DNA of 64,000 nt, taken from an uncultured Gammaproteobacteria bacterium. Lineage in GTDB: Bacteria; Patescibacteriota; Microgenomatia; Levybacterales; GWA1-39-11. The position numbers and the translations under genes were made by a program. A model generated the notes under the pieces. The model was not told the origin of the DNA and searched no databases. It saw only the letters and a program-made list of their open reading frames with translations. The stretch lies in assembly GCA_964409875.1 (NCBI GenBank), contig CAYPEN010000004.1:11596-75595 (forward strand), in the 5' to 3' direction. This document shows, piece by piece, positions 2,811 through 46,938 of this stretch. Every line of letters starts with the position of its first letter. The stretch's first letter is position 1.

Positions 2811-5063
2811 ATGCGTCTTCCTGCCATACCATTTCTTACAAAAACAGTAACAAGCGAATTCTTTCTTTCTTTAATTTTTGAAAGCGATAAGGTATCTTCT
2901 ATCCTTTTTAAGGAGCAGGAGAAAACACTTATTATTTTGGCATCCCACCAAGTTCCTATTGACCTTGAGGATGCAGCAGTTGAAGATTTGGTTGTTGCAA
3001 GCGACAAGGTGATATCAAAATTAGAGCTTAGTCTTCCTGAAAATGCAACACTTGAGAAGACGATATTTGCGGTTCCCTATTCATGGGTTGAAGAAGGAAA
3101 AATAAAAACAGAGAGACTTACGCAGCTTAAGAAAATCAGTATTGAGCTCGCGTTAACCCCCATGGGTTTCATCGTTTCAATTGAGGCAATTATTGCCTTT
3201 TTGCAGAAAAAAGAAGGCGCACCAATAAGTGGCATTTTTGTTGAAGTTTCTGAGAGGTACATTACCGTTTTTGTAGTGAGAGGCGGAAATATTATCGATA
3301 TCAAACATGGCGTTGTTGAGAACAGTGTGGAGACGACGGTCGAAAAGCTTTTAGGACATGTAACGAGTCTGGATGTTCTTCCCTCGAAGATTGTCCTTAT
3401 ACATACGAAAGAGTCGGAAAGCATTCAACAGAAATTCTTATCGCATCACTGGACAAAAGATCTCCCTTTCATGCATCTTCCACAGGTGGCAATTCTTGAA
3501 AAAGGCTTTGAGAATGAGGCAATTGTGAGCGGTGTTGCCTCACAACTTAATGTGACGTTGCGGGGGGATGTTGCCGTTTCAACGAATGAGGAGATTGGGG
3601 AAGACGAGGAGGAAGTGAGCACCAGTAGCGACCTTTTTGGTTTTGTGAAGGATGCAGATATTGCCGAAGCAAAGAATGAAGAGCCGATACATGTCACTCC
3701 CCCAAAGAAAGATGAATTTGATTTCAAAGAAGAAGTTGCTGATAACCAAATTATCGTAAAACATCATGGAGTAGAGCAGTCAAATGGGGAAGACGAAGAA
3801 CTGTATGAAGAAGATGAACCTCACGCTAAAAAGGAAGTAGCCAGAAAAAAAATAGGCGGAGGAATTCTACCTTTTTTATCTGAATTTTTTACTCCCAATA
3901 CTTTTGCAAAAATTCCTCATTTTTTGGGAAGCGGAAGAAGGCTCGTTATTCCAATCATTGCCCTCATAGCTGTTTTGGGAGTTTTAGCTTTATATTACCT
4001 GGTCTATCTTAAGACAGACGTTATTGTATTTACGGATCAGAAGGCGTTTACGCAAGACTCTTTAGACATCACCCTTACAACTAGTGGTAATTCCTCTTTT
4101 TCGGATAAAACGTTAAAAATATCAACGTTAAATGAGGAGGTTCAAGGTGAAGAGTCGCAAGAGACAACCGGTCAAAAAGATACTGGACAGAAAGCGACTG
4201 GAAGCATCACTCTCTTCAATAAAACCGAAAGTCCCAAGCAACTGGATAAAGGAACAATAGTTACCTCCTCTAATAACCTTAATTTCACGCTTAACGATGC
4301 GGTATCTATTGCTTCTACAAGTTCTTTTTCGACCTCTTTTTCAAACGCACAAGTAAAAGTGACCGCTTCGAATTTCGGTAAAGAATACAATATTCCTTCG
4401 GCAACAAATTTCACTATCAAAGGCACACCAACATCAGACCTTTTCGGAAGGAATGACAGCGCATTTTCAGGGGGAACAAAAGAAGAAGTTCAGGTAGTCT
4501 CAAAGAAAGATTTACAGGGCCTTGAGGATACAGTTACAAAACGACTTTTTGAGAAAGCATCTTCCCAAGCGTCATCAAAACTATCAGCAGATGAGGCAAT
4601 GATTCCTTCATATTTAACCGCTGATTTCAAAGAAAAGAAATTTGATAAAAAAGCAGATGATGAAGCAAAGAATGTAAAGCTTTCTGCAACAGTGGAGTAT
4701 ACTTTAGGGGTTTATAAAAAAGAGGAATTATCCAAATTCATCTCAACGTCGAATAATTTCAATGTTCCCGCAGATTTCAGATTATCTGAGCCTGACTCTT
4801 CGATAAAAATTTCAGAAATTCAACAAAACAAGAATGATGTCAGCGCAAAACTTTCATTCAATGCTGTTTTTAGACCACAAATCGATTCAAACAAAATCCC
4901 TCAACTTATTTCCGGAAAGAGTGAAAAGGATGCTATTGCAAAGCTAAAAGGGATATCCGGCATATCTGATGTGTCAATCGTATTTCCTAACAAACTTCCT
5001 TATTTGCCTTCTTTGGTCTCTCTTAATAAAGGCAATATAAAAGTCGAACTTAAAACCCAATAA
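2811..5063 (+). CDS. large membrane protein: N-terminal cytoplasmic domain, acidic linker, one TM helix, Ser/Thr-rich extracytoplasmic domain
   Basis: 750 aa ORF. TM segment LVIPIIALIAVLGVLALYYLVYL in the middle. The N-terminal ~250 aa have an FtsA/PilM-like pattern (inference only). Immediately upstream of a sortase gene. Confidence 0.6.
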   Translation: MRLPAIPFLTKTVTSEFFLSLIFESDKVSSILFKEQEKTLIILASHQVPIDLEDAAVEDLVVASDKVISKLELSLPENATLEKTIFAVPYSWVEEGKIKTERLTQLKKISIELALTPMGFIVSIEAIIAFLQKKEGAPISGIFVEVSERYITVFVVRGGNIIDIKHGVVENSVETTVEKLLGHVTSLDVLPSKIVLIHTKESESIQQKFLSHHWTKDLPFMHLPQVAILEKGFENEAIVSGVASQLNVTLRGDVAVSTNEEIGEDEEEVSTSSDLFGFVKDADIAEAKNEEPIHVTPPKKDEFDFKEEVADNQIIVKHHGVEQSNGEDEELYEEDEPHAKKEVARKKIGGGILPFLSEFFTPNTFAKIPHFLGSGRRLVIPIIALIAVLGVLALYYLVYLKTDVIVFTDQKAFTQDSLDITLTTSGNSSFSDKTLKISTLNEEVQGEESQETTGQKDTGQKATGSITLFNKTESPKQLDKGTIVTSSNNLNFTLNDAVSIASTSSFSTSFSNAQVKVTASNFGKEYNIPSATNFTIKGTPTSDLFGRNDSAFSGGTKEEVQVVSKKDLQGLEDTVTKRLFEKASSQASSKLSADEAMIPSYLTADFKEKKFDKKADDEAKNVKLSATVEYTLGVYKKEELSKFISTSNNFNVPADFRLSEPDSSIKISEIQQNKNDVSAKLSFNAVFRPQIDSNKIPQLISGKSEKDAIAKLKGISGISDVSIVFPNKLPYLPSLVSLNKGNIKVELKTQ

Positions 5064-15871: not shown

Positions 15872-16297
15872 ATGCCAACACTCAATCAACTCGTTAAAAA
15901 AGGACGAGCAAAAAAAGGAAAAAAGATCAAAGCAACCGGTCTTCGCACTATTTTTAATGCAAAAAATAGGGCGTACACTGAGAATCCTTCCCCTCAAAAA
16001 AGAGGAGTAGTAACGTTGGTGCGTACCATGACTCCTAAGAAACCTAATTCAGCTCTTCGAAAAGTTGCAAGGGTAAAGCTTTCAAACCGGGAAGAGGTCA
16101 CTGCATATATTCAGGGTATTGGGCACAATTTAGCTGAGCATGGTATTGTTTTGGTCCGTGGAGGGAGAGTCAAGGATTTACCGGGTGTGAAATACCACTT
16201 AATAAGAGGAAAGTTTGATTTGGCAGGAGTTCAAAATAGAAAAACATCACGCAGTAAATATGGAGCAAAGAAAGGAGGCGGCGCACAAGCGCAATAG
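15872..16297 (+). CDS. rpsL: 30S ribosomal protein S12
   Basis: [12 protein letters not shown]... typical S12 sequence. Confidence 0.95.
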
Positions 16298-28290: not shown

Positions 28291-30486
28291 TTATTCGAGC
28301 TTTCCAAGTTCTTCCGCTTTTCCATCAGTCTTGAAGTATTTTACGATATACGGTTTTTCAGGAAGTTTGGTGTAAGCTGCTTTATATGTTTTATTCTCTT
28401 TAGCTGGAATAATATCTGGAATATCACTTGTTTCTATTCCTGTTCCATGTTTATCCGAATGTAATTGAAAACTAAGACTCCTAATTGGCATGCTTTTTTC
28501 CGACGAATTTTTGATTAAAATTTCCACCATAACCGTACTACTTGTTTCAGTCATTTTTGTTACCTGAGCGGTAACATTTTCTACAATTTCCTTAGCTCCA
28601 TAAGAAGTAAAACCCGGAGTCTGGTTTATATTTGAAGCAGTTGCCGTTGGCGTGATAGTAGTTAACGGCACATCAGTTGGGACAATTGCGTCCTTATCTA
28701 TAATTTCTTCACCGGTTTGTGTATCAAGAACAATTACCCAATATTCCTTGCCTCTTTTAGCATTGAACTTAACATACTTACTATCCTTGGAGAAGGTGAA
28801 AGAATTGAGTATCTCTGTTTCAAAAGTGCTTGGTTGAAGATAGTAATATGTGGTAGCTCTTGAGGGAGAAAATATGTAAGTTGCTTCCTTTAAGCCGCCA
28901 TAGGGAAAATTTATTTCCGCTCTGTTAGTGTAATCAAGAACTGCATTGACTGTCGTACTATCTGTATCAATACTGCCTCCATTGATTAATTCCCAGTAAA
29001 TAACATGTTTGCTATCAGGACTAAAGGCTGGTGCGCGATAAGGTGAAGCTCCTGAATATTCTTTGTCGTCGATTACGGTAATTGTTTTATTGCCATACTC
29101 TTTATTCAGGAATGAGGTATATCCTAATCTTTTGGAATCAGGGCTAAAAGAAACACCGTATATATGTCCATTTTTTGTGCCGTAGCTTTTAAGGTGTGGG
29201 CCCCATTCACCTTCGAATAATATGCCGCTTGTTGCATAGACAAACCGTTTGCTATCAGGGCTAAAGTAAATTCCATCCATTTCTGACAGTAATGAGTAAA
29301 GCTTTATGAGACTTTTACCGTCAAGATAAACCTCCATTTGATTAGTTCCCTCCGATGCAAAAGCAAATCGCTTGCTATCAGGGCTAAATAGGAGATAACT
29401 AATATGCCGAAATCCATTAGCTATCTCTTTTCCATCAACGACAAGTACAATTTCCCCACTGTCATATACATTGTTTACAAAACCGCCATTGGACTTTCTT
29501 CCAACATAAGCGAGTCTGTTTCCGTCTGGGCTCCAAGTATACGCACCTGCTCTTGAGATAGAATAGACAGAATCGCCGATTTCCAGATATTCAGATTGTT
29601 TTACTCCGTTAAGCACTATAAATTTTTTATTAACACCTGCAGAACCGACGTATGCATAATTGCTCCCGCTTGGTGCGAAAGACAAAGAGCCACCTTGGTA
29701 TGGTTGTTCTTTTCCTTCAATAAAAACCTTACTTGTCTTATTGACCGAGTCACTGAGAATGTATCCGTTTTTTGAAGCATCAATGCTGAAAGAAATGTCA
29801 GAAATTCTTAGGCTTCCTGTGGGGTCGGGGTACTTTGCGATTATGGAGTTGTTCACGTAGTATATGAGGTATCCATTTTGATGATTCCAGGTTGCAAGCT
29901 TTTGGCCATTTTTACTTATTGTTAACCCACCCAGTTGCGGGAGAATTTGAATTTCTTTTCCATCATTAAAGATATGAGCGAGTCTGTCATTAGACATACC
30001 AATCATCAAGAGTTTCCCGGTTACATAGTTGTATGCTGCTAATGCAATTTTTAAGTTGTTACAAACTGTACAGTCCGGTATTACATATCCATCATGGCCT
30101 TCCGGAGTTTCAAAAATGACATGCTCCTTGTCAGGGCTAAATATGGGTATAAGTGAGTTATCATCAGGGACATCGGTAATTTTATGTGAAAATGGAGTAG
30201 GTGTTGGGAGTGGAATATTTGTGGTGTTAGTAGTTGTAGCGGCAGTATTTTTAAAAGTCTCATGTGGTAAAAATGCGAGGGCACTGACATTTTTTGAGAT
30301 GGGTAGGATATTAAAATAGTTCAAGAAAAGAAGAGTTGATACTATAAGCAATATAGTAATTCCTTCAATAGAAAACGCTTTAAAAAGTGATCCGGAGTTG
30401 GAGGGACCTTGATCAGGAAGTTTGAAAGATGTTACGGGGGGCAAGGGATTGTTATTTTCCACACTTTCAGTGTAGTAAAACAGCAA
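28291..30486 (-). CDS. membrane-anchored PD40/WD40-like beta-propeller repeat protein
   Basis: At least 6 repeats of the FSPDSKR(F/L) motif (TolB-like PD40). N-terminal TM. C-terminal domain followed by a Thr/Pro linker. Confidence 0.75.
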   Translation of the reverse strand: MLFYYTESVENNNPLPPVTSFKLPDQGPSNSGSLFKAFSIEGITILLIVSTLLFLNYFNILPISKNVSALAFLPHETFKNTAATTTNTTNIPLPTPTPFSHKITDVPDDNSLIPIFSPDKEHVIFETPEGHDGYVIPDCTVCNNLKIALAAYNYVTGKLLMIGMSNDRLAHIFNDGKEIQILPQLGGLTISKNGQKLATWNHQNGYLIYYVNNSIIAKYPDPTGSLRISDISFSIDASKNGYILSDSVNKTSKVFIEGKEQPYQGGSLSFAPSGSNYAYVGSAGVNKKFIVLNGVKQSEYLEIGDSVYSISRAGAYTWSPDGNRLAYVGRKSNGGFVNNVYDSGEIVLVVDGKEIANGFRHISYLLFSPDSKRFAFASEGTNQMEVYLDGKSLIKLYSLLSEMDGIYFSPDSKRFVYATSGILFEGEWGPHLKSYGTKNGHIYGVSFSPDSKRLGYTSFLNKEYGNKTITVIDDKEYSGASPYRAPAFSPDSKHVIYWELINGGSIDTDSTTVNAVLDYTNRAEINFPYGGLKEATYIFSPSRATTYYYLQPSTFETEILNSFTFSKDSKYVKFNAKRGKEYWVIVLDTQTGEEIIDKDAIVPTDVPLTTITPTATASNINQTPGFTSYGAKEIVENVTAQVTKMTETSSTVMVEILIKNSSEKSMPIRSLSFQLHSDKHGTGIETSDIPDIIPAKENKTYKAAYTKLPEKPYIVKYFKTDGKAEELGKLE

Positions 30487-30687
30487 TTATGATGCAAATA
30501 ATCCTCCGCAATACACAGAGAGGTTATAGTGTGAGTTTATGGAACGTTCCATGCTCCCATATGTATATACTGCGGGGGAGCCGCATCTTATCCATTAATA
30601 CCTTTTCCTTCCAAATTTCATGACTGAGAATTTGTTTTGTTTTTTTATAAATTGTGGCTCTTGTTTTTGTTAGCAACTCAAAATTTA

Positions 30688-31143
30688 TCACATCGCATTC
30701 ACCCTCTTTCGAGCATCAGTTAGTTCTAATGTTTCAATTTCCCTAATGGCTTTTTTTGAGATGGTATTGAGTGGAACTTTTAATTCCGTTACAAAATTTC
30801 CTAAAACTTTTTTTGAAAGAGGATACGGGATGTATTTCTTTATGATTGCAAACAAATTTTTATGGCCCCCGATAAGTATTCCGTCGACTGGATTTTCCTT
30901 AACGTATTTTTTTACAATAGCTGAAAGAGAATTGAGATGTTGGTGAAGATGTTCTTGTATATGCCGGTTGATTTTATCTTGTGCATCCCAGGCGTTACTC
31001 CCATGTTTTACTCTTTGAGGAACATCATTTTTCGAGAAGTCTAAAAGAGAGGAGACAGTCCCTTTAAAAAGAGTGAACAATTTTGCTTGTTTTCTATCTG
31101 CAATAAGCACTAAATATGTTTTGCTTGAATTGTAATTTTTCAT
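30688..31143 (-). CDS. Host_attach / bacterial eRF1-like (baeRF) family protein, tentative
   Basis: 151 aa beginning YLVLIADRKQAKLF, typical of Host_attach/eRF1-domain-3-like proteins. Recalled from memory; low certainty. Confidence 0.4.
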   Translation of the reverse strand: MKNYNSSKTYLVLIADRKQAKLFTLFKGTVSSLLDFSKNDVPQRVKHGSNAWDAQDKINRHIQEHLHQHLNSLSAIVKKYVKENPVDGILIGGHKNLFAIIKKYIPYPLSKKVLGNFVTELKVPLNTISKKAIREIETLELTDARKRVNAM

Positions 31144-31191
31144 AAATTCACATGCCGGTTAATCTCCCTATCTCCGGCATGTTAGCAATTC

Positions 31192-31509
31192 TCAGCTTTT
31201 CCCATAGTAGAGTTCGCTTCCGGCAACAACGGTTAGAAGTATGCCAATAGTTATACTTGTCCAAAGTGCTGCGGTTATAATCCCAAAACTAAAGATGAAT
31301 GGAGAAAGGATTATTGCAACCCCTACTAAGGATGCTACCCAGTATTCCCATCGTCCGCGTCCACGTGCATATCCTTCCAGAAAAGAAACTGCTACAACCC
31401 CTGCACCAAAGAGCAAGCTTGCCCAGAGCGCAGTCGGATTATCTGAGTATCTGAAAAAAAACGGTGCACCCATGAGTGCGGCTCCTAACAGTCCAGTGAC
31501 CCAGTACAT
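31192..31509 (-). CDS. SPW-repeat membrane protein
   Basis: Two TM hairpins with repeated ...SPF/...SPW-like motifs (GAPFFFRYS, LSPFIFSFG). Confidence 0.5.
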   Translation of the reverse strand: MYWVTGLLGAALMGAPFFFRYSDNPTALWASLLFGAGVVAVSFLEGYARGRGRWEYWVASLVGVAIILSPFIFSFGIITAALWTSITIGILLTVVAGSELYYGKS

Positions 31510-31511
31510 AA

Positions 31512-31895
31512 TTATCCACCTCCTTTCTCTTTTGCTTCTGCCTTTTCTGCGTCTTCTTTAGTTGGTTGGAGAGTCTCTGGGGGATGGTTAGGTGGGGAAT
31601 AAACAGTATAAAGCTTTAGATTAATTGTTCCTGTGTTGACAAAATTATGTGGGGTGCCAGCTGGTACAAAAGAAACATCTCCTGCCTCAAAGTCATGCGT
31701 TTGCCCGTTTAGTATTGCCTGGCCTTTCCCTTCTACAAAAAAAAGGATCTGGTCGACTGCTTCGTGAGTTTCCAGACCAATATCCTCGTTGATTGGTATA
31801 CTCATGAGGACCAATTGACTATGTTTCCCTGTATAAATCACCTCACGAAAATGATTGTTTCCTTTTGTTAGTTTATGTATATCCTTTAAAAACAT
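31512..31895 (-). CDS. cupin domain protein
   Basis: G(X)5HxH...E...G...P.G..H.N pattern: HEAVDQILFFVEG...VPAGTPHNF. Confidence 0.7.
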   Translation of the reverse strand: MFLKDIHKLTKGNNHFREVIYTGKHSQLVLMSIPINEDIGLETHEAVDQILFFVEGKGQAILNGQTHDFEAGDVSFVPAGTPHNFVNTGTINLKLYTVYSPPNHPPETLQPTKEDAEKAEAKEKGGG

Positions 31896-32093
31896 ACGAC
31901 TCCTTTATATTGGTGCAAAAAAATAGAAAGTAAAAAAATTTGTAATAAGCTTTTCGATGAGGTTAGTAATTCTTTTCATAAATCTAGTGTTATTATTGCG
32001 TTTTATACACTAAATGTCAGTGATAATTCTCACATTTTTGTTGTGACTTTTATCACATCTGATTACAAGTAAATTAGATAATATAAGTTCAGT

Positions 32094-32468
32094 ATGATAC
32101 GTTTGTTAGAAAGTGGTAAATATTCAGTTTTTGAAACCGGTGGCCATACAAGAATTTTAGAGATTGTTGATAAATATAACTTTGCGTGGATACATACCAA
32201 TGTAGGTGAAATACTTGTTGCTTCTCAACAGGAATTTAAGCCCAAAGAATTGGTTGCTGAGGGTAATTACCGTTTGTATGATGTCAAAAATGAGCCGGAA
32301 TTGACTGATCTAATTCACCTTGAGTTGTTTGTGGGTGAAGGGAAGTGGCAAGGATATTTATTACCTACAGGATTTCCTGAAGCTAAGAAAAAAAGAAGCA
32401 GAATTATTCCCACCAATGAGATTATTACAACCTACAATCCGAATATCAGCTCGTCTTCAAGCTTGTGA
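32094..32468 (+). CDS. hypothetical protein
   Basis: 124 aa ORF. No recognised domain. Ser-rich C-terminus. Confidence 0.4.
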   Translation: MIRLLESGKYSVFETGGHTRILEIVDKYNFAWIHTNVGEILVASQQEFKPKELVAEGNYRLYDVKNEPELTDLIHLELFVGEGKWQGYLLPTGFPEAKKKRSRIIPTNEIITTYNPNISSSSSL

Positions 32469-33112
32469 ATATCAGGGACAATGATTTCGTTTCGGGCAAA
32501 AGAGATAATGCCTTTCTCTTTCAGAAGTTTGAATTCTCTACTTACGGTTTCGCGGCTCATTCCCGCTTGGGATGCAATATCCTTTTCCGTAGAATTAAGA
32601 ATCACTTTGTCTCCTTCTTTTTTACCGAAGCGTTTGGCATCTATGAGTAATTCAGTAACAAGTCTGGTATAAGCGCTTCCCGACATAAAATATGTCATGC
32701 GTTGTAAAATCCCATCCATTCCTCTAAAAACACGGCTTAACAAATCAAAAAGTACGTCTGGTTGGCTTTTTATAAATTGGAGAACCTTCTCGCGGGTCGC
32801 TTTGACTGCTTCTATGTCTTCCATTGCCTCAAAAAAATACTCATTCTTTGTTCCATTAATTGCCCATGACATGGGAAAAAAAGAGATGGGTTTGAAAATA
32901 TTTACAACAAATTCATCACCGTTCTGAGAAATAGAGTATTCTTTAACTTTCCCCTTTGTTAAATAGAATATTCCTGAAGGGTCATCGCCTGCTCTTATCA
33001 ATATTTCACCTTTTTTGTACTTATAAGATTTAAATTGGGAAAAAAAAGTGGCAAGTTTTGAAGAAACAGCATCATTCATGAGGCAATTATACCTTTTTAA
33101 AATTAGTGACAC
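32432..33112 (-). CDS. Crp/Fnr family transcriptional regulator
   Basis: cNMP-binding beta-roll region and C-terminal HTH (RETVSREFKLLKEKGII). Confidence 0.8.
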   Translation of the reverse strand: MSLILKRYNCLMNDAVSSKLATFFSQFKSYKYKKGEILIRAGDDPSGIFYLTKGKVKEYSISQNGDEFVVNIFKPISFFPMSWAINGTKNEYFFEAMEDIEAVKATREKVLQFIKSQPDVLFDLLSRVFRGMDGILQRMTYFMSGSAYTRLVTELLIDAKRFGKKEGDKVILNSTEKDIASQAGMSRETVSREFKLLKEKGIISFARNEIIVPDIHKLEDELIFGL

Positions 33113-33153
33113 AAATCATATGTATTCAATGTCTTCTATCGTTAAAATGAAGT

Positions 33154-33492
33154 ATGAATTATATGGTACTCACAAAAAAAGTCGGGTTTTCATTACTTTT
33201 AATACCGGTTGCTTTTCTCCTTTTTTTTGGTATAGGTGAGATGATCGAGGGAACACCAGGTGCAGTAATTCACTTTGTGCAACTTGTGCCTCTTCTCATT
33301 TTGATATTAGTCGCTTATTTTAATTCTGAGTGGGCTGGATACCTTCTAATAGTTATTGGCTCAATATTGGGGATATTATATGCCATAACGACACGTTTCC
33401 CGTTGCCAACAATTTTGCTTGTCGAGTTGATGCTCTTTGTGATGCCAGTTGTGTCAGGAGTATTGCTTGTTACCTCTTCGAAAAAACGATAA
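33154..33492 (+). CDS. small membrane protein
   Basis: Four hydrophobic helices; no known domain. Confidence 0.45.
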   Translation: MNYMVLTKKVGFSLLLIPVAFLLFFGIGEMIEGTPGAVIHFVQLVPLLILILVAYFNSEWAGYLLIVIGSILGILYAITTRFPLPTILLVELMLFVMPVVSGVLLVTSSKKR

Positions 33493-33526
33493 TACCTCTA
33501 CTATTTTGTGGTAGTATTAAGTCAGG

Positions 33527-34054
33527 ATGGAAGATGCAACCGTTATAGAGCAAGCATCGGTTAAAGAATCGATGCAGATGACTGAAACAAAAGACGTTTT
33601 GATGAAGGCGTTGCAAGAACCGGACCCAGTTTATGAAATTATCGAAAACAAACCTCTAAAAGAAAACTGGATTACTGCTGCGGTTACCAGATTAGGTCAA
33701 GCAGTTGAAGGTAATTCAACTACCGTTATTTCCTTTACCGATGCCAATCTTGCTCTCCAAAACGAGCGGGGTTTTGCCAGTGCATATTTGAAGCATTTGG
33801 GTTCAAACATCGATGTCATGACTCTAAAGGACATAGTGGGAGGTCAAAGAAAGCTTGCTGTAGTAAAAAGAGCAGAGTTGGATTTTCCAACAGAACCACG
33901 ACTTGCTTGGGTTGAGGATGAATTGGGAAGGCGGAATCTCATTTCAACAACTAAAATTGATGGAGTACAGGTGGAGCTTGATATGCATGCAATAGGCAAG
34001 GGGCCCGAAACCACAGGGGTTTTACATCCAATTCTCCGCTTGTCTACAAAATAG
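33527..34054 (+). CDS. hypothetical protein
   Basis: 175 aa; no recognised motifs. Confidence 0.45.
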   Translation: MEDATVIEQASVKESMQMTETKDVLMKALQEPDPVYEIIENKPLKENWITAAVTRLGQAVEGNSTTVISFTDANLALQNERGFASAYLKHLGSNIDVMTLKDIVGGQRKLAVVKRAELDFPTEPRLAWVEDELGRRNLISTTKIDGVQVELDMHAIGKGPETTGVLHPILRLSTK

Positions 34055-34277
34055 AGTCCACTACACACATTTTTTAGAAGTACCCGATTTGATAGACGGC
34101 CTATAATTTTGATATTTACCCTCAAAGATAGTATAATTTACCGTTTGTGTAAATGAGCTTGGTCCAAAAGCGGGCCTCTGCCCGTTTGTATCACGCACAT
34201 TCACAATTGAAAGGACATGAAATGTAAAGAGTAACCCACCAGGTACAAAGAAAAACTACAGGAAAGAGGAAAACAGC

Positions 34278-35297
34278 TTGGTCACAAGAATCGGCATCAA
34301 CGGCGCCGGCCGCATCGGCCGGATGGTCACAAAGACGGTCACTGACCGTTACCAGGGTCAACTTCAGGTCGTTGCTCTCAACGATCCGTTCTCCGAGCCT
34401 CGTGTCACGGCCAACATGCTCAGGTACGACAGTACCTACGGCCGTTGGAGTCACGAGGTCGAGGAGGGCAACGATCACATCAAGGTTGACGGCCGTTACA
34501 TCCCTCACTTCAGTGAGCGCGAGCCCGGTTCGATTCCTTGGGAGGCGGCACAGGTCGACATCGTCGTCGAATCGACGGGCGTCTTCACTGACGCCGCCCG
34601 TGCCCGCGCACACATGCGAGGGCCGGTCAAAAAGGTCATCATCAGTGCACCCGCCAAGAGCGAGGACTACACAGTGGTTCTCGGCGTCAACGACGATGGG
34701 TATGATTCCGCTCGTCACGATGTGGTGAGTAACGCATCCTGCACGACCAATGGGCTCGCCCCGGTCGTGAAGGTGCTCGTCGACAACCTCGGGCTCGTAA
34801 AGGGCCAGATGACGACAATCCATTCCTACACCAATTCCCAGCAGATCCTCGACAAGGCTGTAGGGAATGACCTTCGCGAGATGCGCGCCGGTCCCCTCAA
34901 CATCGTGCCGACATCAACCGGCGCAGCCAGGGCCCTCCGGCTCGTCATCCCCGAAGTCGATGGAAAGCTTGACGGGCTTTCGTACCGCGTCCCGACGCCG
35001 ACGGTCTCAATCGTCGAGATCGTTGCGCTGACCGAAAGGGACACAACGAAAGACGAGCTCAACGGACTGTTTCGGGAGGCTTCCATAGGGAAGATGAAGG
35101 GTGTCTTGGGTATCACCATGGACCCCGTCGTCTCGATGGACATGAAGGGCGATGAGCGCTCAAGTGTCGTCGACGGGATGTCGACCAACGTTGTCGGGGG
35201 TAACCTCGTCAAGGTCGCAGCCTGGTACGACAACGAGTGGGCATACGCATGTCGCATCAGCGACCTCTGCAAATTCATCGCCGACAAGGGGCTCTAG
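34278..35297 (+). CDS. gap: glyceraldehyde-3-phosphate dehydrogenase, type I (GC-rich, likely horizontally acquired)
   Basis: RIGINGAGRIGR NAD-binding motif; catalytic SNASCTTN. TTG start with AAAGAGGA upstream. GC content and codon usage (GCC, GTC, GAC, CGC) differ sharply from the flanks. Confidence 0.92.
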   Translation: MVTRIGINGAGRIGRMVTKTVTDRYQGQLQVVALNDPFSEPRVTANMLRYDSTYGRWSHEVEEGNDHIKVDGRYIPHFSEREPGSIPWEAAQVDIVVESTGVFTDAARARAHMRGPVKKVIISAPAKSEDYTVVLGVNDDGYDSARHDVVSNASCTTNGLAPVVKVLVDNLGLVKGQMTTIHSYTNSQQILDKAVGNDLREMRAGPLNIVPTSTGAARALRLVIPEVDGKLDGLSYRVPTPTVSIVEIVALTERDTTKDELNGLFREASIGKMKGVLGITMDPVVSMDMKGDERSSVVDGMSTNVVGGNLVKVAAWYDNEWAYACRISDLCKFIADKGL

Positions 35298-35319
35298 CTG
35301 TCCAAGTCCTTTCAAGCCC

Positions 35320-35352
35320 GGAGCGGCGGGGGTTTTATTCCTCCGTCGCTCC
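35320..35352 (+). terminator. GC-rich hairpin downstream of gap (terminator candidate)
   Basis: GGAGCGGCGG ... CCGTCGCTCC (10 bp, one mismatch), followed by T-rich sequence. Confidence 0.3.
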
Positions 35353-35441
35353 TTATACTACTTTCTTTTTTTACCTCAATTTGGTATACTTTCAAAGACC
35401 CTTAAATCGGGTCGTTTTTTTGACTAAAAAAAGTACATATT

Positions 35442-37571
35442 ATGGCTGGAGCAGCCCCAACAACTACAGTTACAAAAGATAGAAACGTAGCGCTTGATAA
35501 AATCCGAAATTTCGGAATTATCGCGCATATCGATGCAGGCAAAACCACAACTTCCGAGCGTATTCTTTATTACACGGGAAGGACCTACAAAATTGGTGAA
35601 GTACACGAAGGTGCCGCAACGATGGACTGGATGGATCAGGAAAGAGAGCGGGGTATTACTATTGTTTCTGCTGCAACCACAACATTTTGGAATGGATACC
35701 GTTTTAACCTTATTGATACCCCCGGTCATGTTGATTTTACTGCAGAAGTAGAGCGTTCTCTCCGTGTTTTAGACGGCGCCGTTACCGTTTTAGACGCAGA
35801 GGAGGGAGTTCAAAGCCAATCCGAAACCGTTTGGCGTCAAGCCGACAAATACAATGTTCCCAGAATCTGCTTTATTAACAAAATGGATAAATTGGGGGCA
35901 GACTATGAAAAGACAATACAATCAGTTATTGATAGGTTGGGTGCGAATCCTGTAACAATCGGTCTTCCTATTGGAGCAGAAAATGATTTTAAGGGTATTT
36001 ATCATGTGCTTGACCAAAAGTCCTATATTTGGTCTGGAGAAGAGTTGGGCGCAAAATTTGAGGTAACGGAAGAGATTCCGGATGGCATGAATGAAATGGT
36101 CAAAAAATACCGCGAGCAACTCATCGAAAAGATTGCAGAGACTGATGATGCACTTTTGGAAAAATACCTGAATGGTGATGAGATTTCTTATGATGAATTA
36201 AAAGCTGCATTGAGAGCTGCAACTATTGCCTACAAGGTTGTTCCGGTATTCGCTGGGACGAGCCTGAGAAATAAAGGTGTCCAACCGTTATTGGATGCAG
36301 TGGTTGATTTCCTTCCATCTCCTGCCGACCTTAAAACGGTTACAGGAACCAATCCCAAGACCGGACAAGAGGAGACGAGAAATTTGACACCTGATGAATC
36401 CTTTACCGGTTTTGCTTTCAAGGTTCAAGTTGATCCTCATGTTGGAAAAATTACGTATGTACGCATCTACTCAGGAAAATTAACTTCAGGCTCATATGCT
36501 TATAACTCAACAAAGGATCTTAAGGAGCGTGTGGGAAGGCTTCTTCTTATGCATGCCAATCAAAGAGAGGAAATAAAAGAGGCATATGCAGGTGAAATCG
36601 TTGCAATTGTCGGATTCAAAGACACAATTACTGGTGATACTCTTTGTGAGGAGGGAAAGCCAATTGTTTTGCAACAGATTACTTTCAGAGACCCTGTTAT
36701 TTCACTTGCCATTGAGCCGAAAACCAAGTCTGACCAAGAGAAATTAGGCGCAGCGATGAAGCGTCTTATGGAAGAGGACCCGACATTTACGGTCAAGATG
36801 AACCACGAAACGGGTCAAACCATCATGTCAGGGGTGGGAGAATTGCAGCTTGAGATTATGGTAGAGCGTATGAAGCGGGAAATGGGAGTTGAGGCAAATG
36901 TTGGTGCACCACAGGTTGCATATAAAGAAACAATTGTTGGAAAAGCTAACGCCGAATTTAAGTACATCAAGCAGACTGGAGGCCGCGGACAATACGGTCA
37001 CGTTTTGATAACCGTTGAGCCGAAAGGAAGAGGTGAGGGATTTGAATTTGTGAATGCTATTAAGGGAGGAGCAATTCCACAAGAATTTATCCCAGCAGTT
37101 GAAAAAGGAATTGTTGAGGCTATGGAGCGAGGAGTTGCCTTTGGATACCCTGTTGTTGATGTAAAAGTGACATTGTACGACGGAACCTATCATGACGTCG
37201 ACTCTTCAGAAATTGCCTTTAAAATTGCCGGTTCACAAGCCTTCCAAAAGGGAGCTCGGGAAGCAAAAGTTACCCTTCTCGAGCCTATTATGAAGGTTGA
37301 GGTAACCACTCCTGAAGAATTTATGGGAGATGTTATCGGTGATCTTTCAGCAAAAAGGGCACAGATTTCAGGAAGCGAGGAAAGAGGCAATTCAAGAATT
37401 ATTTTGGCTCTTGTTCCCCTTGCTGAGCTTTCCGGATACGCTACAACACTTCGTTCTCTGACTCAGGGAAGAGCAAACCCATACATGGAGCCATCCCACT
37501 ACGAGGAAGTGCCTACCCAGATTCAAGAACAAATCAAAGCGAAATCCAACTTCGTTCCCAAAGAAGAGTAG
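35442..37571 (+). CDS. fusA: elongation factor G
   Basis: G domain [21 protein letters not shown], and all five EF-G domains. Confidence 0.95.
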
Positions 37572-37614: not shown

Positions 37615-38802
37615 ATGGCACGAAAAAAGATATCTGAATTTGCGGCCAAGAAACTCCTGTACGAATTTTTAGAAGTCCCCTACAATGGTGTTTCTATAGA
37701 CACAAATGATGAATATTATGAAGATCTCCTTTCACAAATGGATGATGGAAAAAAATATGTCCTTAAAGTAGACCAGGGAATAAAGCAGCGGAAGAAGAGA
37801 GGACTGGTTACGTTCAATATTTCAAAAGAGAATATTAAAGAAGAAATCGTGAGGCTTGCCGAGAAAGGCTTCTCAAGTTTTATATTGGAAGAATTTGTTG
37901 AGCATGAAGGATTTGGCGAAAATTATCTGGCAATTGAACGGGTGCGAGAAGGGAAGAGGGTGTACTATTCGACCGTAGGAGGAATAGACATTGAAGAGCA
38001 TAAGGACAAGATAGAGACGGCAATCATTAGCGATTACAGTCAGTTTGAAGATATTTCAAAGACTCTGGGGATAACTGTTGAAACTTTTGAAAGCTTATTG
38101 CAAGCATTTGATAATTACTATTTTTCATTTCTTGAAATAAATCCTTTAGTTTCCATGAACGGGAAATTCTACTTTCTTGATACTGCAGTTGAGGTAGATA
38201 GCACCGCAGAATTTTTTGTAAATGGAGCGTGGAGCAAAAGTGATTTTCGAGAAGGGGGAAGGGCGCAAAAAACACCAGAAGAGGTGGCAATAGAAGAGTT
38301 AAAAGAAACTACTCCTGCGGCATTAAGTTTTCAACTACTCAATCCTGATGGTTCTTTGTTTGTATTATTATCAGGCGGCGGGGCATCACTGGTGACTGCT
38401 GATGAGATTTATCAAAAAGGAAAAGGAAATGAATTAGCAAATTATGGTGAGTATAGCGGAAGTCCGTCCGAGGAAGAAACCTATTTATATGTGCAGCAAA
38501 TTTTACGTACGTTGCTCCGTTCGAAAGCTCCAAAAAAGGCAATAATTGTTTCGGGTGGCGTTGCTAATTTTACCGATGTCAGAATTACCTTTAAAGGAAT
38601 AATAAGAGCGATGGAAGAAGTAAGCGATGATTTAAAACAACAAAACACTAAAGTATTTGTTCGGCGTGGAGGTCCCCATCAGGATGAAGGACTTTCAATG
38701 ATGAGAGAATTTCTTGAAAAGCATGATCTACTGGGAGAAATTCACGGTCCGGAATTAGTGTTAACGGATATTGTACAACCGGCGATTGAATGGATTAGTT
38801 GA
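37615..38802 (+). CDS. aclB: ATP-citrate lyase small subunit (ATP-grasp, succinyl-CoA synthetase beta-like)
   Basis: Strong ACLY/AclB-specific motifs: KKISEFAAKKLLYEF, FLEINPLV, NELANYGEYSGSPSEEETY, TFKGIIRAM, VFVRRGGPHQDEGL. Confidence 0.85.
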   Translation: MARKKISEFAAKKLLYEFLEVPYNGVSIDTNDEYYEDLLSQMDDGKKYVLKVDQGIKQRKKRGLVTFNISKENIKEEIVRLAEKGFSSFILEEFVEHEGFGENYLAIERVREGKRVYYSTVGGIDIEEHKDKIETAIISDYSQFEDISKTLGITVETFESLLQAFDNYYFSFLEINPLVSMNGKFYFLDTAVEVDSTAEFFVNGAWSKSDFREGGRAQKTPEEVAIEELKETTPAALSFQLLNPDGSLFVLLSGGGASLVTADEIYQKGKGNELANYGEYSGSPSEEETYLYVQQILRTLLRSKAPKKAIIVSGGVANFTDVRITFKGIIRAMEEVSDDLKQQNTKVFVRRGGPHQDEGLSMMREFLEKHDLLGEIHGPELVLTDIVQPAIEWIS

Positions 38803-38840
38803 AGTGTGAAGTATGATTTAGGATTTAGGATTTAGGATAT

Positions 38841-40625
38841 ATGAATATAAAAGAATTACGAGAATTAACATCAAAAATTATTATCATCGGATCGCATCCG
38901 GGAATTATTCAGTCAATTTTGGATTACGATTTTTTAGTAGGGCACACTACTCCATCTATTATTGGGATTGTTGCGAATGGAAGAAGATATGAACGTTTCT
39001 TTTTTGGAAAACATGAAACACTAATTCGTGTATATCCTACTCTCTCCTCTATCCCCAAAGAAATGAGAGAAAAAGTGAACATGCTTCTGAATGTCTCGTC
39101 AGGGAGGAGAACTTTCACCTCCACTGTTGAGGCAATAGATGCATTTCCAAATTTAAAACTCGGAACTCTTTTTGCAGAAGGTGTTCCTGAAAAACATGCA
39201 ATTGACCTTTTCGAATATGCAAAAGACAAAAACGTAACCCTTATCGGTCCGGCAAGTGTAGGGATAGTAGTTCCTGGAGCTTTTAAGCTGGGAGCAGTTG
39301 GAGGAATTTCGCAAAAACAAATAACTTCATCAGGCATTTGGTCAAATGGCGGTGTGTGTGTGCTCTCTGCTTCGGGGGGAATGGTGAACGAAATCATAAA
39401 TGTTGTGAATGGTACCCACAACAAAACCTCTTTTGCTCTTTCTTTTGGTGGAGATAGATTTCCTCTTCTAGAACCGGTTGATGCATTGATGGCAGCTCAA
39501 GTAGATGAGGCAACACAAGCAATTGTTTATTATGGTGAATTAGGGGGAGAAGATGAGTATAAATTGGCAAAACTCATAGAAATAGGACACATCACAAAGC
39601 CGGTTATTTGCTATGTTGCAGGAACAATTTCCGATCTTTTTGAAACTCCTCCGCAATTTGGGCATGCAAAAGCGATGGCAAAAAATATGGAAGAGTCAGC
39701 AAGTGCGAAGCGGGAGACTCTCAAAAAGGCGGGTGCAAAAGTTCCAGAAAGTTTTTCTGAATTTGTTGATATGATACGAAACCTTCCTGACTTTGGAACA
39801 GAAGAGGCAAGTGGTACAATTGAGTATATGGAAGATAGACGACACGCGCTCATTTCATCAAGCATTTCAAAAGATGTAGATGGGGACGTAAAAATATTGG
39901 GTGAGGATTTGACTACCTTTGCAAAAGATAATTCATTTGCAAAAATTGCTGCATCATTGTTTCTTGGGAAAAAATTACAAAATTCTGAAACCGAAGAGCT
40001 TGTCGATTTTATATTAAAAGTTAGCGTTGATCACGGACCCTATGTCTCGGGTGCACTTAACACTATTGTCTCTGCACGAGCAGGAAAGGACTTGGTCTCA
40101 TCATTGTCAGCCGGACTTTTGACGATAGGTCCTCGTTTTGGTGGTGCTCTGAACGAGGCAGCAAGGAATTGGTTTTCAGGGGTTGTTGATAACAAGACAG
40201 CCTTTCAATTCGTCGAAGAATTTGCAGCTCGGAAAGAATACATACAAGGTATTGGTCATAAAAAATACCGTATTGATATGCCTGACCCTAGGGTTTCTGA
40301 ACTTAAGAAGTTCATGGATAAATTGGAAAAGAAGAGGTTTATACATTTTGCTCTTAATGTCGAAAAAATAACAACGGATAAAAAAGGAAATCTGATACTC
40401 AACGTTGACGGTACAATAGCCGCCCTACTCCTCGACTTTCTTTCCGAAAAGGAGGGGTATACTGACGAACAATTATTTGAGTTAATCCAGCAAGAATTTT
40501 TCAATGCACTTTTTGTTCTCTCAAGAAGTGTTGGTTTTATCGCTCATTTCCTTGACCAAAAAAGACTCGACGAGGGATTATTGCGGTTAACTGAAGACGA
40601 TGTAGCAGATGCAAGTTTACAATAG
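38841..40625 (+). CDS. aclA: ATP-citrate lyase large subunit (CoA-binding + phosphohistidine loop + citrate-synthase-like domain)
   Basis: CoA-binding N-terminus; PPQFGHAKAMA matches the ACLY catalytic His loop (QFGHAGA); C-terminal GHKKYRIDMPDPR is citrate-synthase-like. Follows aclB after a 38 nt spacer. Confidence 0.85.
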   Translation: MNIKELRELTSKIIIIGSHPGIIQSILDYDFLVGHTTPSIIGIVANGRRYERFFFGKHETLIRVYPTLSSIPKEMREKVNMLLNVSSGRRTFTSTVEAIDAFPNLKLGTLFAEGVPEKHAIDLFEYAKDKNVTLIGPASVGIVVPGAFKLGAVGGISQKQITSSGIWSNGGVCVLSASGGMVNEIINVVNGTHNKTSFALSFGGDRFPLLEPVDALMAAQVDEATQAIVYYGELGGEDEYKLAKLIEIGHITKPVICYVAGTISDLFETPPQFGHAKAMAKNMEESASAKRETLKKAGAKVPESFSEFVDMIRNLPDFGTEEASGTIEYMEDRRHALISSSISKDVDGDVKILGEDLTTFAKDNSFAKIAASLFLGKKLQNSETEELVDFILKVSVDHGPYVSGALNTIVSARAGKDLVSSLSAGLLTIGPRFGGALNEAARNWFSGVVDNKTAFQFVEEFAARKEYIQGIGHKKYRIDMPDPRVSELKKFMDKLEKKRFIHFALNVEKITTDKKGNLILNVDGTIAALLLDFLSEKEGYTDEQLFELIQQEFFNALFVLSRSVGFIAHFLDQKRLDEGLLRLTEDDVADASLQ

Positions 40626-45891: not shown

Positions 45892-46938
45892 TTAGGAGTA
45901 CTTTTTCAATAAATTCACTAAGGCATCTTCGCTCCATGAAAGTCCCTTTATTTGAGGTTTTTTGTTTTTGTGCGCTTCGAAGTGGGGAACAAGCACTTTT
46001 TTTGAATATGTTTTGATAACCGTTGGATGGATATAGTAGTTCCTACAGACTGCAACGGTATTATTAAGATGTACTGCAACCTTTTTTACCGTATCAACGA
46101 CATTTTTCTTTATTTCGCTCGCATTCTCGGCTTGCCCCTTTTTATAAAATATCTCAGAAGAAAGAGTGGTTGCTCCCCACGTCCTAAAATCCTTGGCGGT
46201 AAAATCATTTTGCGTTACATCTTGTAAAAAATCATTGACATCCTGAGAATCAATTACGTGCCTTTCCCCCTCGTCATCGATATACTGAAATAATTCATAG
46301 CCAGGCAACTCAATGCACTTTTTTATGGTTTTAACAACTGTTGGGTTTGTCACTTCAATAACATTTTCAACTCCGTGTTTTCCTCTAAAACGGAAAACAA
46401 TCTCTCCCGTTTTTACCAATGCATGCTTGTTGCGAAGCGTTGTGAGACCATATGAATCGTTTTCTTTTTGATACTCTTCATTTCCAATCCGGACAAACGT
46501 ATGTTCTAAAAGCCAGACAATTGTTGCAAGAATTTTTTGCTTTGACATATCCTTTGAGTGCATGTCATATGCTATTTTTGAACGTATTTTCGGTAGACTT
46601 AGTCCAAAATCGACCATTTTTGAGAACTTATTTTCCTGACTTATTTTCTTCCAGTCTTCGTGATATATATATTGTTTTCTTCCTTTCTCATCGATACCGG
46701 TTGCCTGTAAATGGCCATTTTGAAAGGGCGCAATCCAAACATTCTTCCAAGCCGGTGGAATAACAAGCTTCTTAATTCGTTCAAGAGTTTTTTCATCTTT
46801 TATTTTATTTCCTTCCGTGTCGTAATAAGAAAAAGAACCCCTGTTCTTTTGTCTAAAGTACCCCGGAGCTGCATCTGAGATATAACGGAGCGATTCCTTT
46901 TTAAGCCCTTCAATTAAATTGGGGGTGAGATTATCCAT
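45892..46938 (-). CDS. DNA topoisomerase IB (bacterial/poxvirus type)
   Basis: Characteristic N-terminal fragment GSFSYYDTEGNKIKDEKTLERIKKLVIPPAW and the catalytic Tyr region near the C-terminus (CRNYYIHP). Confidence 0.85.
   Translation of the reverse strand: MDNLTPNLIEGLKKESLRYISDAAPGYFRQKNRGSFSYYDTEGNKIKDEKTLERIKKLVIPPAWKNVWIAPFQNGHLQATGIDEKGRKQYIYHEDWKKISQENKFSKMVDFGLSLPKIRSKIAYDMHSKDMSKQKILATIVWLLEHTFVRIGNEEYQKENDSYGLTTLRNKHALVKTGEIVFRFRGKHGVENVIEVTNPTVVKTIKKCIELPGYELFQYIDDEGERHVIDSQDVNDFLQDVTQNDFTAKDFRTWGATTLSSEIFYKKGQAENASEIKKNVVDTVKKVAVHLNNTVAVCRNYYIHPTVIKTYSKKVLVPHFEAHKNKKPQIKGLSWSEDALVNLLKKYS

Follow-up and report, generated by a model that had tools for sequence, protein, structure and literature searches.

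How does a single GC-rich gene for a core glycolytic enzyme come to stand in an otherwise AT-rich stretch of bacterial DNA? The question is raised by a gene for type I glyceraldehyde-3-phosphate dehydrogenase (GAPDH) that lies directly upstream of fusA, the gene for elongation factor G (EF-G), in the 64-kb stretch analysed here (the window). The answer that the evidence supports well is an interphylum transfer of a core gene that is now undergoing amelioration, the gene being derived from Chloroflexota, from a donor of the Dehalococcoidia/Tepidiformia kind, by an old transfer into an ancestor of the host group, Candidatus Levyibacteriota; we put the probability of this reading at about 85%. 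The two genes are the following.

34278..35297, + strand: type I GAPDH gene, 339 aa, TTG start codon, TAG stop codon (by TIGR01534, Pfam, alignment with PDB 1vc2, GC content at third codon positions and nearest relatives)
35442..37571, + strand: fusA (EF-G), host gene (TIGR00484, 1043 bits; GC content at third codon positions 0.37; 96% identical to a Levyibacteriota record)

Composition, identity and origin of the gene

In 200-nt windows the GC content rises from 0.40–0.44 to 0.57–0.63 across about 34250–35350 and is about 0.41 afterwards, and GC content exceeds 0.47 in no other 1-kb window of the whole 64 kb. The GAPDH coding sequence (CDS) has a GC content of 0.596, with 0.61, 0.42 and 0.76 at the first, second and third codon positions (third-position value, GC3, 0.759), compared with a GC3 of 0.342 ± 0.042 and a GC content of 0.396 ± 0.033 in the other 59 open reading frames (ORFs) of at least 100 aa, so that GAPDH stands at z = 10 and z = 6.1, respectively. 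Tetranucleotide distance, a check that an earlier note on this DNA had proposed, singles out the 1-kb window at 34251 as the top outlier of the 64 kb, 7.9 sd above the mean. Relative synonymous codon usage (RSCU) correlates with that of host genes at +0.88 for fusA and at r = −0.33 for the GAPDH gene. The jump in GC content over one gene, the AT-rich flanks on both sides and the switch in codon usage that the note had described are thus borne out, and the two antisense ORFs that it listed (34191..34823 and 34826..35287) both exist, wholly on the strand antisense to GAPDH. The island itself stands as well, with one correction to the span of 34150–35360 given for it: 34150–34277 is an AT-rich leader outside the GC-rich stretch, which opens at the start codon (34278), ends about 55 nt past the stop codon and coincides with a single CDS.

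The assignment as a type I GAPDH located upstream of fusA, which begins at 35442, also holds. The protein scores 389.3 bits against TIGR01534, above the curated cutoff of 367.2, with residues 4–328 covering model positions 1–329 of 330, and both Pfam domains, PF00044 (Gp_dh_N) and PF02800 (Gp_dh_C), are recorded for it. It aligns end to end with the solved GAPDH structure PDB 1vc2 (residues 4–338 with residues 2–330), and the catalytic cysteine and histidine motifs SNASCTTN and TTIHSYTN are identical to those of 1vc2 and kept in all eight aligned sequences. The start codon varies among TTG, GTG and ATG in relatives and keeps its aligned position throughout. Judged by these features, the gene is intact and functional.

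The host is, by its marker sequences, a member of Candidatus Levyibacteriota (Patescibacteria or Candidate Phyla Radiation, CPR; Microgenomates group): records titled Candidatus Levyibacteriota match its EF-G at 96% and 81% identity, and remoter matches are other Patescibacteria. The relatives of the GAPDH protein are of another kind. Among the best 120 database matches, beyond the exact match and a relative at 88%, there is a dense block at 72–78% identity in which every named match is from Chloroflexota (Dehalococcoidia, Tepidiforma, Thermoflexaceae and 'Chloroflexi bacterium'). The protein similarity search that had been suggested as a way of finding the donor therefore points to Chloroflexota, one of the two donor groups guessed beforehand; with closest named relatives in Chloroflexota and host markers of Levyibacteriota, the proposed foreign origin by horizontal acquisition is upheld. 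Three Chloroflexota GAPDH loci were examined, and they have a genome GC content of 0.67, a GAPDH GC3 of 0.87–0.91 and flanks without any similarity to those of the window. The RSCU of the window GAPDH correlates with that of Chloroflexota flanking genes at r = +0.63 and with that of Chloroflexota GAPDHs at +0.72. In composition and codon usage the gene thus departs from the recipient and agrees with the proposed donor, as expected of a xenolog.

Assemblies from other projects carry a GC-rich GAPDH directly upstream of fusA between AT-rich flanks of Levyibacteriota type (L003, L004, L005, L009, L087 and L088), and GAPDH is also present in L013. Identities below are to the window sequence.

L003, JGI 3300015608: EF-G 92% over the 26 aa on the contig; GAPDH 88%; GC3 0.77
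L004, SRP135725: EF-G 96%; GAPDH 88%; GC3 0.77
L005, XM1_ASGE3bin.27: EF-G 96%; GAPDH 88%; GC3 0.75
L009, SRP286056: EF-G 94%; GAPDH 73%; GC3 0.75
L087 and L088, DRR783867 and SRR20718479: EF-G 94% (L087); GAPDH 75%; GC3 0.68
L013, record CAZBEA010000068.1: EF-G 76%; GAPDH 63%; GC3 0.72

The window, L004/L005, L009 and L087 have in common, at the same positions, an AT-rich leader of about 120 nt with a promoter, the sequence after the stop codon and a homologous GGAGCG...CGCTCC hairpin followed by the native fusA promoter. Junctions that are identical in four host lineages favour a single insertion in their common ancestor. The presence of the gene is patchy, again as expected of a xenolog: the slot between guaA and fusA holds GAPDH in the window, L003–L005, L009, L013 and L087/L088 and lacks it in L006, L008, L010–L012, L014, L015, L017 and L091.

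In the explanation that we favour, a GAPDH gene from a GC-rich Chloroflexota donor would have entered an ancestor of this Levyibacteriota group and landed in the variable stretch between guaA and fusA, probably by uptake of foreign DNA followed by illegitimate recombination; no mobile-element genes lie nearby. There it would form a transcription unit of its own, with an AT-rich, host-type putative sigma-70 promoter, translation from the TTG start behind a purine-rich ribosome-binding site (RBS), and a transcript end at a GC-rich hairpin, a presumed terminator, just before the native fusA promoter. Several species-level lineages would have inherited it under purifying selection, while its third positions drifted from a donor-like GC content (about 0.9) toward the host-like value (about 0.34), now standing at 0.76.

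Several observations weigh against this explanation. The GAPDH trees are neighbour-joining (NJ) trees, and the direct contrast with native CPR GAPDH is missing from the set of sequences compared. The closest Chloroflexota protein is only 78% identical to the window GAPDH, so that the true donor is unsampled and its GC3 is estimated from relatives. Synonymous divergence (dS) of GAPDH is 2–3 times below that of the flanking host genes (31512–37571) in distant and close pairs alike (0.67 vs at least 1.8 for window–L004; 0.22 vs 0.30–0.99 for L004–L005), which plain neutral amelioration with the AT bias of the host does not predict. Finally, the L009 GAPDH is 87% identical to Dehalococcoidia proteins, has none of the derived residues of the window/L087 clade and joins that clade in 0 of 100 NJ bootstraps, and guaA and pepM24 pair the L009 host with the L087 host (100% bootstrap), unlike the GAPDH protein tree.

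GAPDH, with TIM and PGK, belongs to a near-universal and largely vertical metabolic core of CPR bacteria (Jaffe et al. 2020, BMC Biol 18:69, PMC7304191). Given this place in the lower-glycolysis core, the acquired GAPDH would most likely replace or supplement a native enzyme; the genome was inspected over 64 kb. Laterally acquired TIM and enolase have been described in Microgenomates on scaffolds that are otherwise CPR-like (PMC7304191). Those cases resemble the present one in that a central-carbon enzyme in a CPR genome has its closest relatives outside CPR; they differ in that here GAPDH is the xenolog, the donor phylum can be named, the donor composition is kept, and the insertion site and age are bracketed. 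We found no GAPDH transfer from Chloroflexota to CPR or Levyibacteriota in the literature. On our reading, another phylum can be the source of a gene even for the small metabolic core of a CPR bacterium, and in the case of GAPDH the donor can be given along with the site and relative age of the insertion.

Single insertion or repeated capture at the guaA–fusA slot

Whether the gene arrived once or several times is a matter on which NJ bootstraps, parsimony quartets and shared derived residues give conflicting signals. The GAPDHs of window/L004/L005 and of L087 have 14–15 derived residues and a one-residue insertion in common, and therefore a single origin. Their NAD-binding domain (residues 1–150; 34278–34730 in the window) is strongly diverged, with GINGFGRIGR changed to GINGAGRIGR and the insertion lying in NDPFSEP; over these first 150 residues the window and L087 proteins are 61–66% identical to Chloroflexota proteins and the L009 protein 85%, whereas over the C-terminal part all three are 82–89% identical. 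The F-to-A change of the GINGFGRIGR motif occurs in the L013 GAPDH too. The conflict over L009 lies in these N-terminal 150 residues, and at synonymous sites the L009 gene is nearest to that of L087, as in the host tree.

Since the protein tree is not congruent with that of the hosts, at least one extra event has to be invoked: the cargo may have been replaced, Levyibacteriota may have recombined with one another, or the N-terminal domain may have accelerated in parallel. We read the sequences as the product, probably, of a single old insertion after which the NAD-binding domain evolved faster in particular lineages; replacement of the cargo, or recombination between Levyibacteriota, is to be kept in view as a serious alternative. 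The L009 gene was also considered as a mosaic, a candidate rejected on a sliding-window identity profile without a clean breakpoint and a GC3 that is uniform along the gene, and this uniformity gives no support to the idea that Chloroflexota DNA recently overwrote part of it.

The alternative bears on the locus as a whole. In the genomes compared, guaA and fusA belong to a conserved backbone, pepM24 (− strand), guaA, a variable stretch, fusA, an ATP-citrate-lyase-like pair (aclB-aclA) and murB, in which the guaA–fusA interval measures about 7 kb in the window and 1.1–2.3 kb in L006, L008 and L009. Directly upstream of the GAPDH cassette the interval holds one further gene.

33527..34054, + strand: 175-aa ORF of host-like composition, directly upstream of the cassette (by homologue comparison)

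This ORF matches no Pfam or NCBIfam family; a 48%-identical homologue occupies the equivalent place in L087/L088, and it is absent from L003/L004/L005 and L009. Between guaA and this ORF (28291–33492) lie genes for a 730-aa beta-propeller protein, a baeRF family 10 protein, a cupin, a 124-aa ORF product, a Crp-family regulator and a 112-aa membrane protein. All six are absent from L087 and L009, which shows that the guaA–fusA interval grows by insertion.

A second family of GC-rich ORFs (178–307 aa) likewise forms single-gene GC islands in AT-rich, Levyibacteriota-like genomes, often in the guaA–fusA slot. Its members are as follows.

L008, 5269–5805: second-family ORF
L013, 1396–2031: second-family ORF
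L091, 8001–8624: second-family ORF
L092, 3715–4638: second-family ORF
L094, 5486–6115: second-family ORF

Those of L008, L013 (where it stands beside GAPDH) and L091 lie in the slot and measure 178–211 aa, with a GC content of 0.54–0.58 vs 0.38–0.44; the copies in L092 and L094 sit at other loci. Only 10 homologues, none of them named, were found in a set of 5.8 billion proteins, there was no Pfam match, and neither a homologue in viral contigs nor a link to Chloroflexota was seen. The one clear exchange is that between L013 (1217–2165) and L014 (2032–3165), in which the leaders are 87.6% identical and the sequences from the stop codon onward 82.6% identical around cargo that is unrelated in DNA and protein (211 vs 273 aa, both GC-rich). 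Here the similarity in DNA is lost beyond the leader and returns precisely with the stop codon, and the 3' arm and hairpin described in the next section are nearly identical.

These observations raise the possibility that the guaA–fusA slot captures or exchanges cargo repeatedly and that the GAPDHs of L009 and L013 are separate captures or replacements, an extension of the favoured explanation that we consider possible, at odds well short of even. The L013/L014 swap, the second family in the slot of L008, L013 and L091 and the bootstraps and residues that set L009 apart from the window clade all speak for it, as does the higher identity of each Levyibacteriota GAPDH type to Chloroflexota proteins than to the remaining Levyibacteriota types. 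Against it, L009 is as decayed in GC3 as the other copies, uniformly so, and sides with L087 at synonymous sites as its host does; the L013 GAPDH has no closer donor (best match 72%); and parsimony quartets lean weakly to grouping the Levyibacteriota GAPDHs, by a method prone to long-branch attraction. Just one clear swap of cargo was observed. The means of exchange are also missing from the locus: the ORFs scanned include no recombinase or transposase domain, in particular near the slot, no tRNA gene occurs in the 64 kb, and no convincing direct repeat flanks the cassette. The locus thus shows none of the integrase or transposase, tRNA target and direct repeats of a genomic island or mobile element.

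The arrangement resembles integron cassettes in its promoter-proximal single-ORF units with an imperfect inverted-repeat hairpin, and in its varied cargo between conserved flanks at one site. It differs in that the window holds no IntI-type integrase, every slot cassette comes with a promoter, and the inverted repeat encloses the ORF instead of standing only on its 3' side; by inspection, with no formal attC model run, no GTTRRRY/RYYYAAC core sites were seen in 35298..35360. The cassette is thus not of the integron kind.

Leader, hairpin and paired arms of the cassette

The sequences on either side of the GAPDH CDS, which are the parts conserved between cassettes, contain the following features.

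34109..34137, + strand: predicted sigma-70-type promoter, TTGATA-17 nt-TATAAT, AT-rich and host-like (11 of 12 consensus matches)
34140..34220, + strand: conserved 5' leader with a small hairpin GCGGGC-CUCU-GCCCG (34170..34184) and the 5' bracket arm
34207..34216, + strand: 5' arm of the bracket helix, TTGAAAGGAC, Shine-Dalgarno (SD)-like, about 70 nt upstream of the start codon (inverted repeat)
34222..34227, + strand: ATG-TAA start-stop mini-ORF, candidate regulatory element, 5 nt past the SD-like 5' arm
34228..34277, + strand: variable AT-rich spacer with RBS AGAGG (34265..34269)
35306..35315, + strand: 3' arm of the bracket helix, GTCCTTTCAA, beginning 9 nt after the stop codon (inverted repeat)
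35320..35352, + strand: GC-rich terminator-like hairpin, 13-bp stem and 7-nt loop, followed by a U-rich tract (dG −27.2 kcal/mol, z −5.0)
35370..35441, + strand: native fusA promoter and leader, right edge of the slot (extended −10 TGGTATACT at 35382..35390; hairpin and T-run at 35397..35420)

The −10 element of the GAPDH promoter is invariant and the −35 element nearly so in the window, L004, L005, L009 and L087, and between four host lineages that are saturated at synonymous sites the leader at 34140..34220 has kept about 90% identity. The spacer at 34228..34277 is not conserved among these loci apart from the purine-rich RBS. Neither promoter nor leader was found in relatives whose slot is without GAPDH, Rfam gave no match for the leader and flanks at E ≤ 1, and a scan of metagenome contigs with the leader motif returned only two matches, both by chance within an unrelated long ORF. 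The leader was also considered as the native fusA promoter and rejected in that role, being absent from empty sites; the native fusA promoter is the sequence 3' of the hairpin, which is conserved with its leader in loci with GAPDH and in those without it (L006, L007 and L008).

The hairpin at 35320..35352 agrees with the GC-rich hairpin that had been noted after the gene, and homologous or analogous hairpins stand at the same place in L004/L005, L087, L009 and L013. A strict terminator scan did not call it, because its T-run begins only 12 nt after the stem; the small hairpin with T-run at 35397..35420 was called.

The most conserved pieces of the leader and of the sequence after the stop codon are TTGAAAGGAC and GTCCTTTCAA, respectively, and the two are perfect reverse complements. 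L004, L005 and L009 show this 10-nt pairing as well, with its arms in the same places. In L087 the 5' arm CTGAAAGGAC matches the 3' arm GTCCTTTCAG through a compensatory change from U-A to C-G, and in L013 the pairing extends to 14 nt, AACGTACCGAAAGG/CCTTTCGGTACGTT, with additional compensatory changes. Perfect arms of 10–14 nt are thus found in all six GAPDH cassettes, compared with 2 of 57 host ORFs that reach 10 nt, both in AT-rich low-complexity sequence. The covariation score over five distinct sequences is 0.275, against 0.094 ± 0.04 for shuffled alignments (0 of 500 as high) and no more than 0.13 in slid registers, and the minimum-free-energy and centroid folds of the predicted 1.2-kb transcript, expected to run from near 34144 to near 35355, both close the whole CDS by this helix. 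A conserved and covarying helix between the 5' and 3' untranslated regions (UTRs) is therefore predicted to bracket the GAPDH CDS. Its arms may act either in RNA (stability, translation) or in DNA (recombination).

We take the 3' arm to resemble the anti-SD tail of 16S rRNA. An ATG-TAA or ATG-TAG lies at the aligned position 5–8 nt after the 5' arm in the window, L004, L005, L009 and L087 (invariant columns A.ATGTA) and is absent from L013; to judge from this conservation, it could be a start-stop regulatory element. In the icaR mRNA of Staphylococcus aureus, an anti-SD-like motif in the 3' UTR pairs with the 5' UTR. The GAPDH cassettes are alike in that a pyrimidine-rich motif of the 3' UTR, GUCCUUUCAA, is complementary to a purine-rich, SD-like motif of the 5' UTR, UUGAAAGGAC, with compensatory changes and a predicted pairing. 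They differ in that the 5' arm lies about 50 nt upstream of the gene's own RBS, beside the ATG-stop mini-ORF, in that the pairing is here predicted from sequence, and in that the arms coincide with the boundaries of exchangeable cargo.

The arms were also considered as a mark of all GC-rich cassettes, which they are not: they are clear only in the six GAPDH cassettes and in L094, whose second-family copy has a 12-nt bracket with the TTGAAAG/CTTTCAA core of the GAPDH cassettes and a GC hairpin, and are within background in L008, L091, L013b, L014 and L092. This L094 copy, at another locus, counts in favour of cargo exchange. On the few loci at hand the slot looks modular. A more far-reaching proposal is that it constitutes a modular site for foreign genes, made up of a host promoter, a leader that ends in an SD-like 5' arm with the mini-ORF, a swappable GC-rich ORF, an anti-SD-like 3' arm and a GC hairpin, in which cargo would be captured and exchanged between genomes and loci and the bracket helix would keep the cargo stable or translatable; we regard this as rather doubtful. 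If true, CPR episymbionts might in this way be receiving genes from Chloroflexota hosts. Of the whole locus, it is the bracket helix and the exchangeable cargo that might prove out of the ordinary. Should the two be general, they would show by what means the very small genomes of symbionts take in GC-rich foreign genes and express them, and they might also help to identify the hosts of CPR bacteria.

Amelioration and age of the insertion

When L009 and three Chloroflexota genes serve as outgroups, the polarised synonymous changes at third positions along the branches of the window, L004 and L005 comprise 43 from GC to AT and 5 from AT to GC (8.6:1). This rejects compositional equilibrium (p = 1.4e-8) and fits neutral mutation under host bias, for which 6.1:1 is expected at a GC3 of 0.76 (p = 0.68), so that the composition of GAPDH is decaying and not at equilibrium. 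Of the distance between the donor-like and the host-like composition, the gene has covered about a quarter. According to the model of Lawrence and Ochman, the composition of a transferred gene reportedly ameliorates toward the mutational equilibrium of its recipient. GAPDH behaves alike in that its donor-like GC3 decays directionally, in the proportion expected under host bias; it differs in that the decay is slower than synonymous turnover in the host, GC3 being still 0.68–0.77 while host genes are saturated. The low dS behind this difference may be an artefact of estimation at skewed composition, a real slowing, or the result of gene flow among Levyibacteriota. Carried by several lineages with strong AT bias in their genomes, the foreign gene offers a natural time series of amelioration.

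Among the Levyibacteriota lineages that share the cassette, the GAPDHs have 73–88% protein identity and dS values of 0.2–1.3. Between the window and L004/L005, nonsynonymous divergence (dN) is 0.067 and dS 0.68, and the resulting dN/dS of about 0.1 indicates purifying selection on GAPDH. The ratio of GAPDH dS between the pairs window–L009 and window–L004 is 1.46, and the corresponding dN ratio for fusA is 1.5, a match that vertical descent predicts.

The persistence of high GC3 admits another interpretation, namely that the gene is native or anciently resident and its GC-richness is actively maintained by selection on codons or mRNA structure or by biased repair. In its favour are the similar GC3 values (0.68–0.77) of all Levyibacteriota copies despite deep divergence of their hosts, the low synonymous divergence relative to host genes and the persistence of other GC-rich ORFs in the slot of relatives. 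We consider it very unlikely all the same, given that the excess of GC-to-AT changes is incompatible with equilibrium and matches neutral host bias, that the protein is placed among Chloroflexota sequences, and that the highly expressed host genes fusA, rpoB and rpsL are AT-rich at third positions. The excess argues against maintenance at equilibrium; the decay may be partially slowed.

An acquisition at the level of the strain, too young for the gene to have changed, would explain the sharp boundaries of the island and a composition still far from that of the host (GC3 0.76 vs 0.34), and it had been suggested that the transfer was recent. We judge this highly improbable, because the cassette is present with the same leader and junctions in at least four other species-level lineages at the divergence given above and each lineage has already built up directional GC-to-AT changes. 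The chance that Chloroflexota reads were mis-joined into a CPR contig during assembly or binning is negligible, even though a composition jump over a single gene can resemble a chimeric join and Chloroflexota and CPR bacteria are found together in many metagenomes: contigs from two separately assembled runs, SRR11845619 and SRR11845634, span both junctions and are 100% identical to the window over 21.0 kb and 15.6 kb (L001 and L002), the gene recurs within these AT-rich flanks in at least five further assemblies that stem from different projects, the GC-rich part is exactly one CDS with a host-type promoter and RBS, and no Chloroflexota protein is more than 78% identical. The chimera that the earlier note had kept as an alternative is thereby refuted.

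Elsewhere in the window, a 750-aa protein with a weak Baseplate_J-like domain is encoded beside alaS (2811–5063), and a gene for a bacterial type IB topoisomerase (45892–46938) stands 10 kb further downstream than the slot; no link to the cassette was found for either. The order rpsL-rpsG-fusA is broken, with rpsL at 15872–16297 and fusA 19 kb away; in the more distant L011, L012, L015 and L017 the rpsL–fusA distance is about 3–4 kb, with pepM24 between. The ATP-citrate-lyase-like pair downstream of fusA (37615–40625; Citrate_bind, then Ligase_CoA and Citrate_synt domains) is kept in all Levyibacteriota loci examined and is unusual for a CPR bacterium. Several of the loci (L004, L006–L009, L012–L015 and L017) come from TPA_asm records of metagenome-assembled genomes titled 'uncultured Gammaproteobacteria', with EF-G proteins 74–96% identical to that of the window; their gene order is of Levyibacteriota type, so that these titles look like placeholder misassignments.

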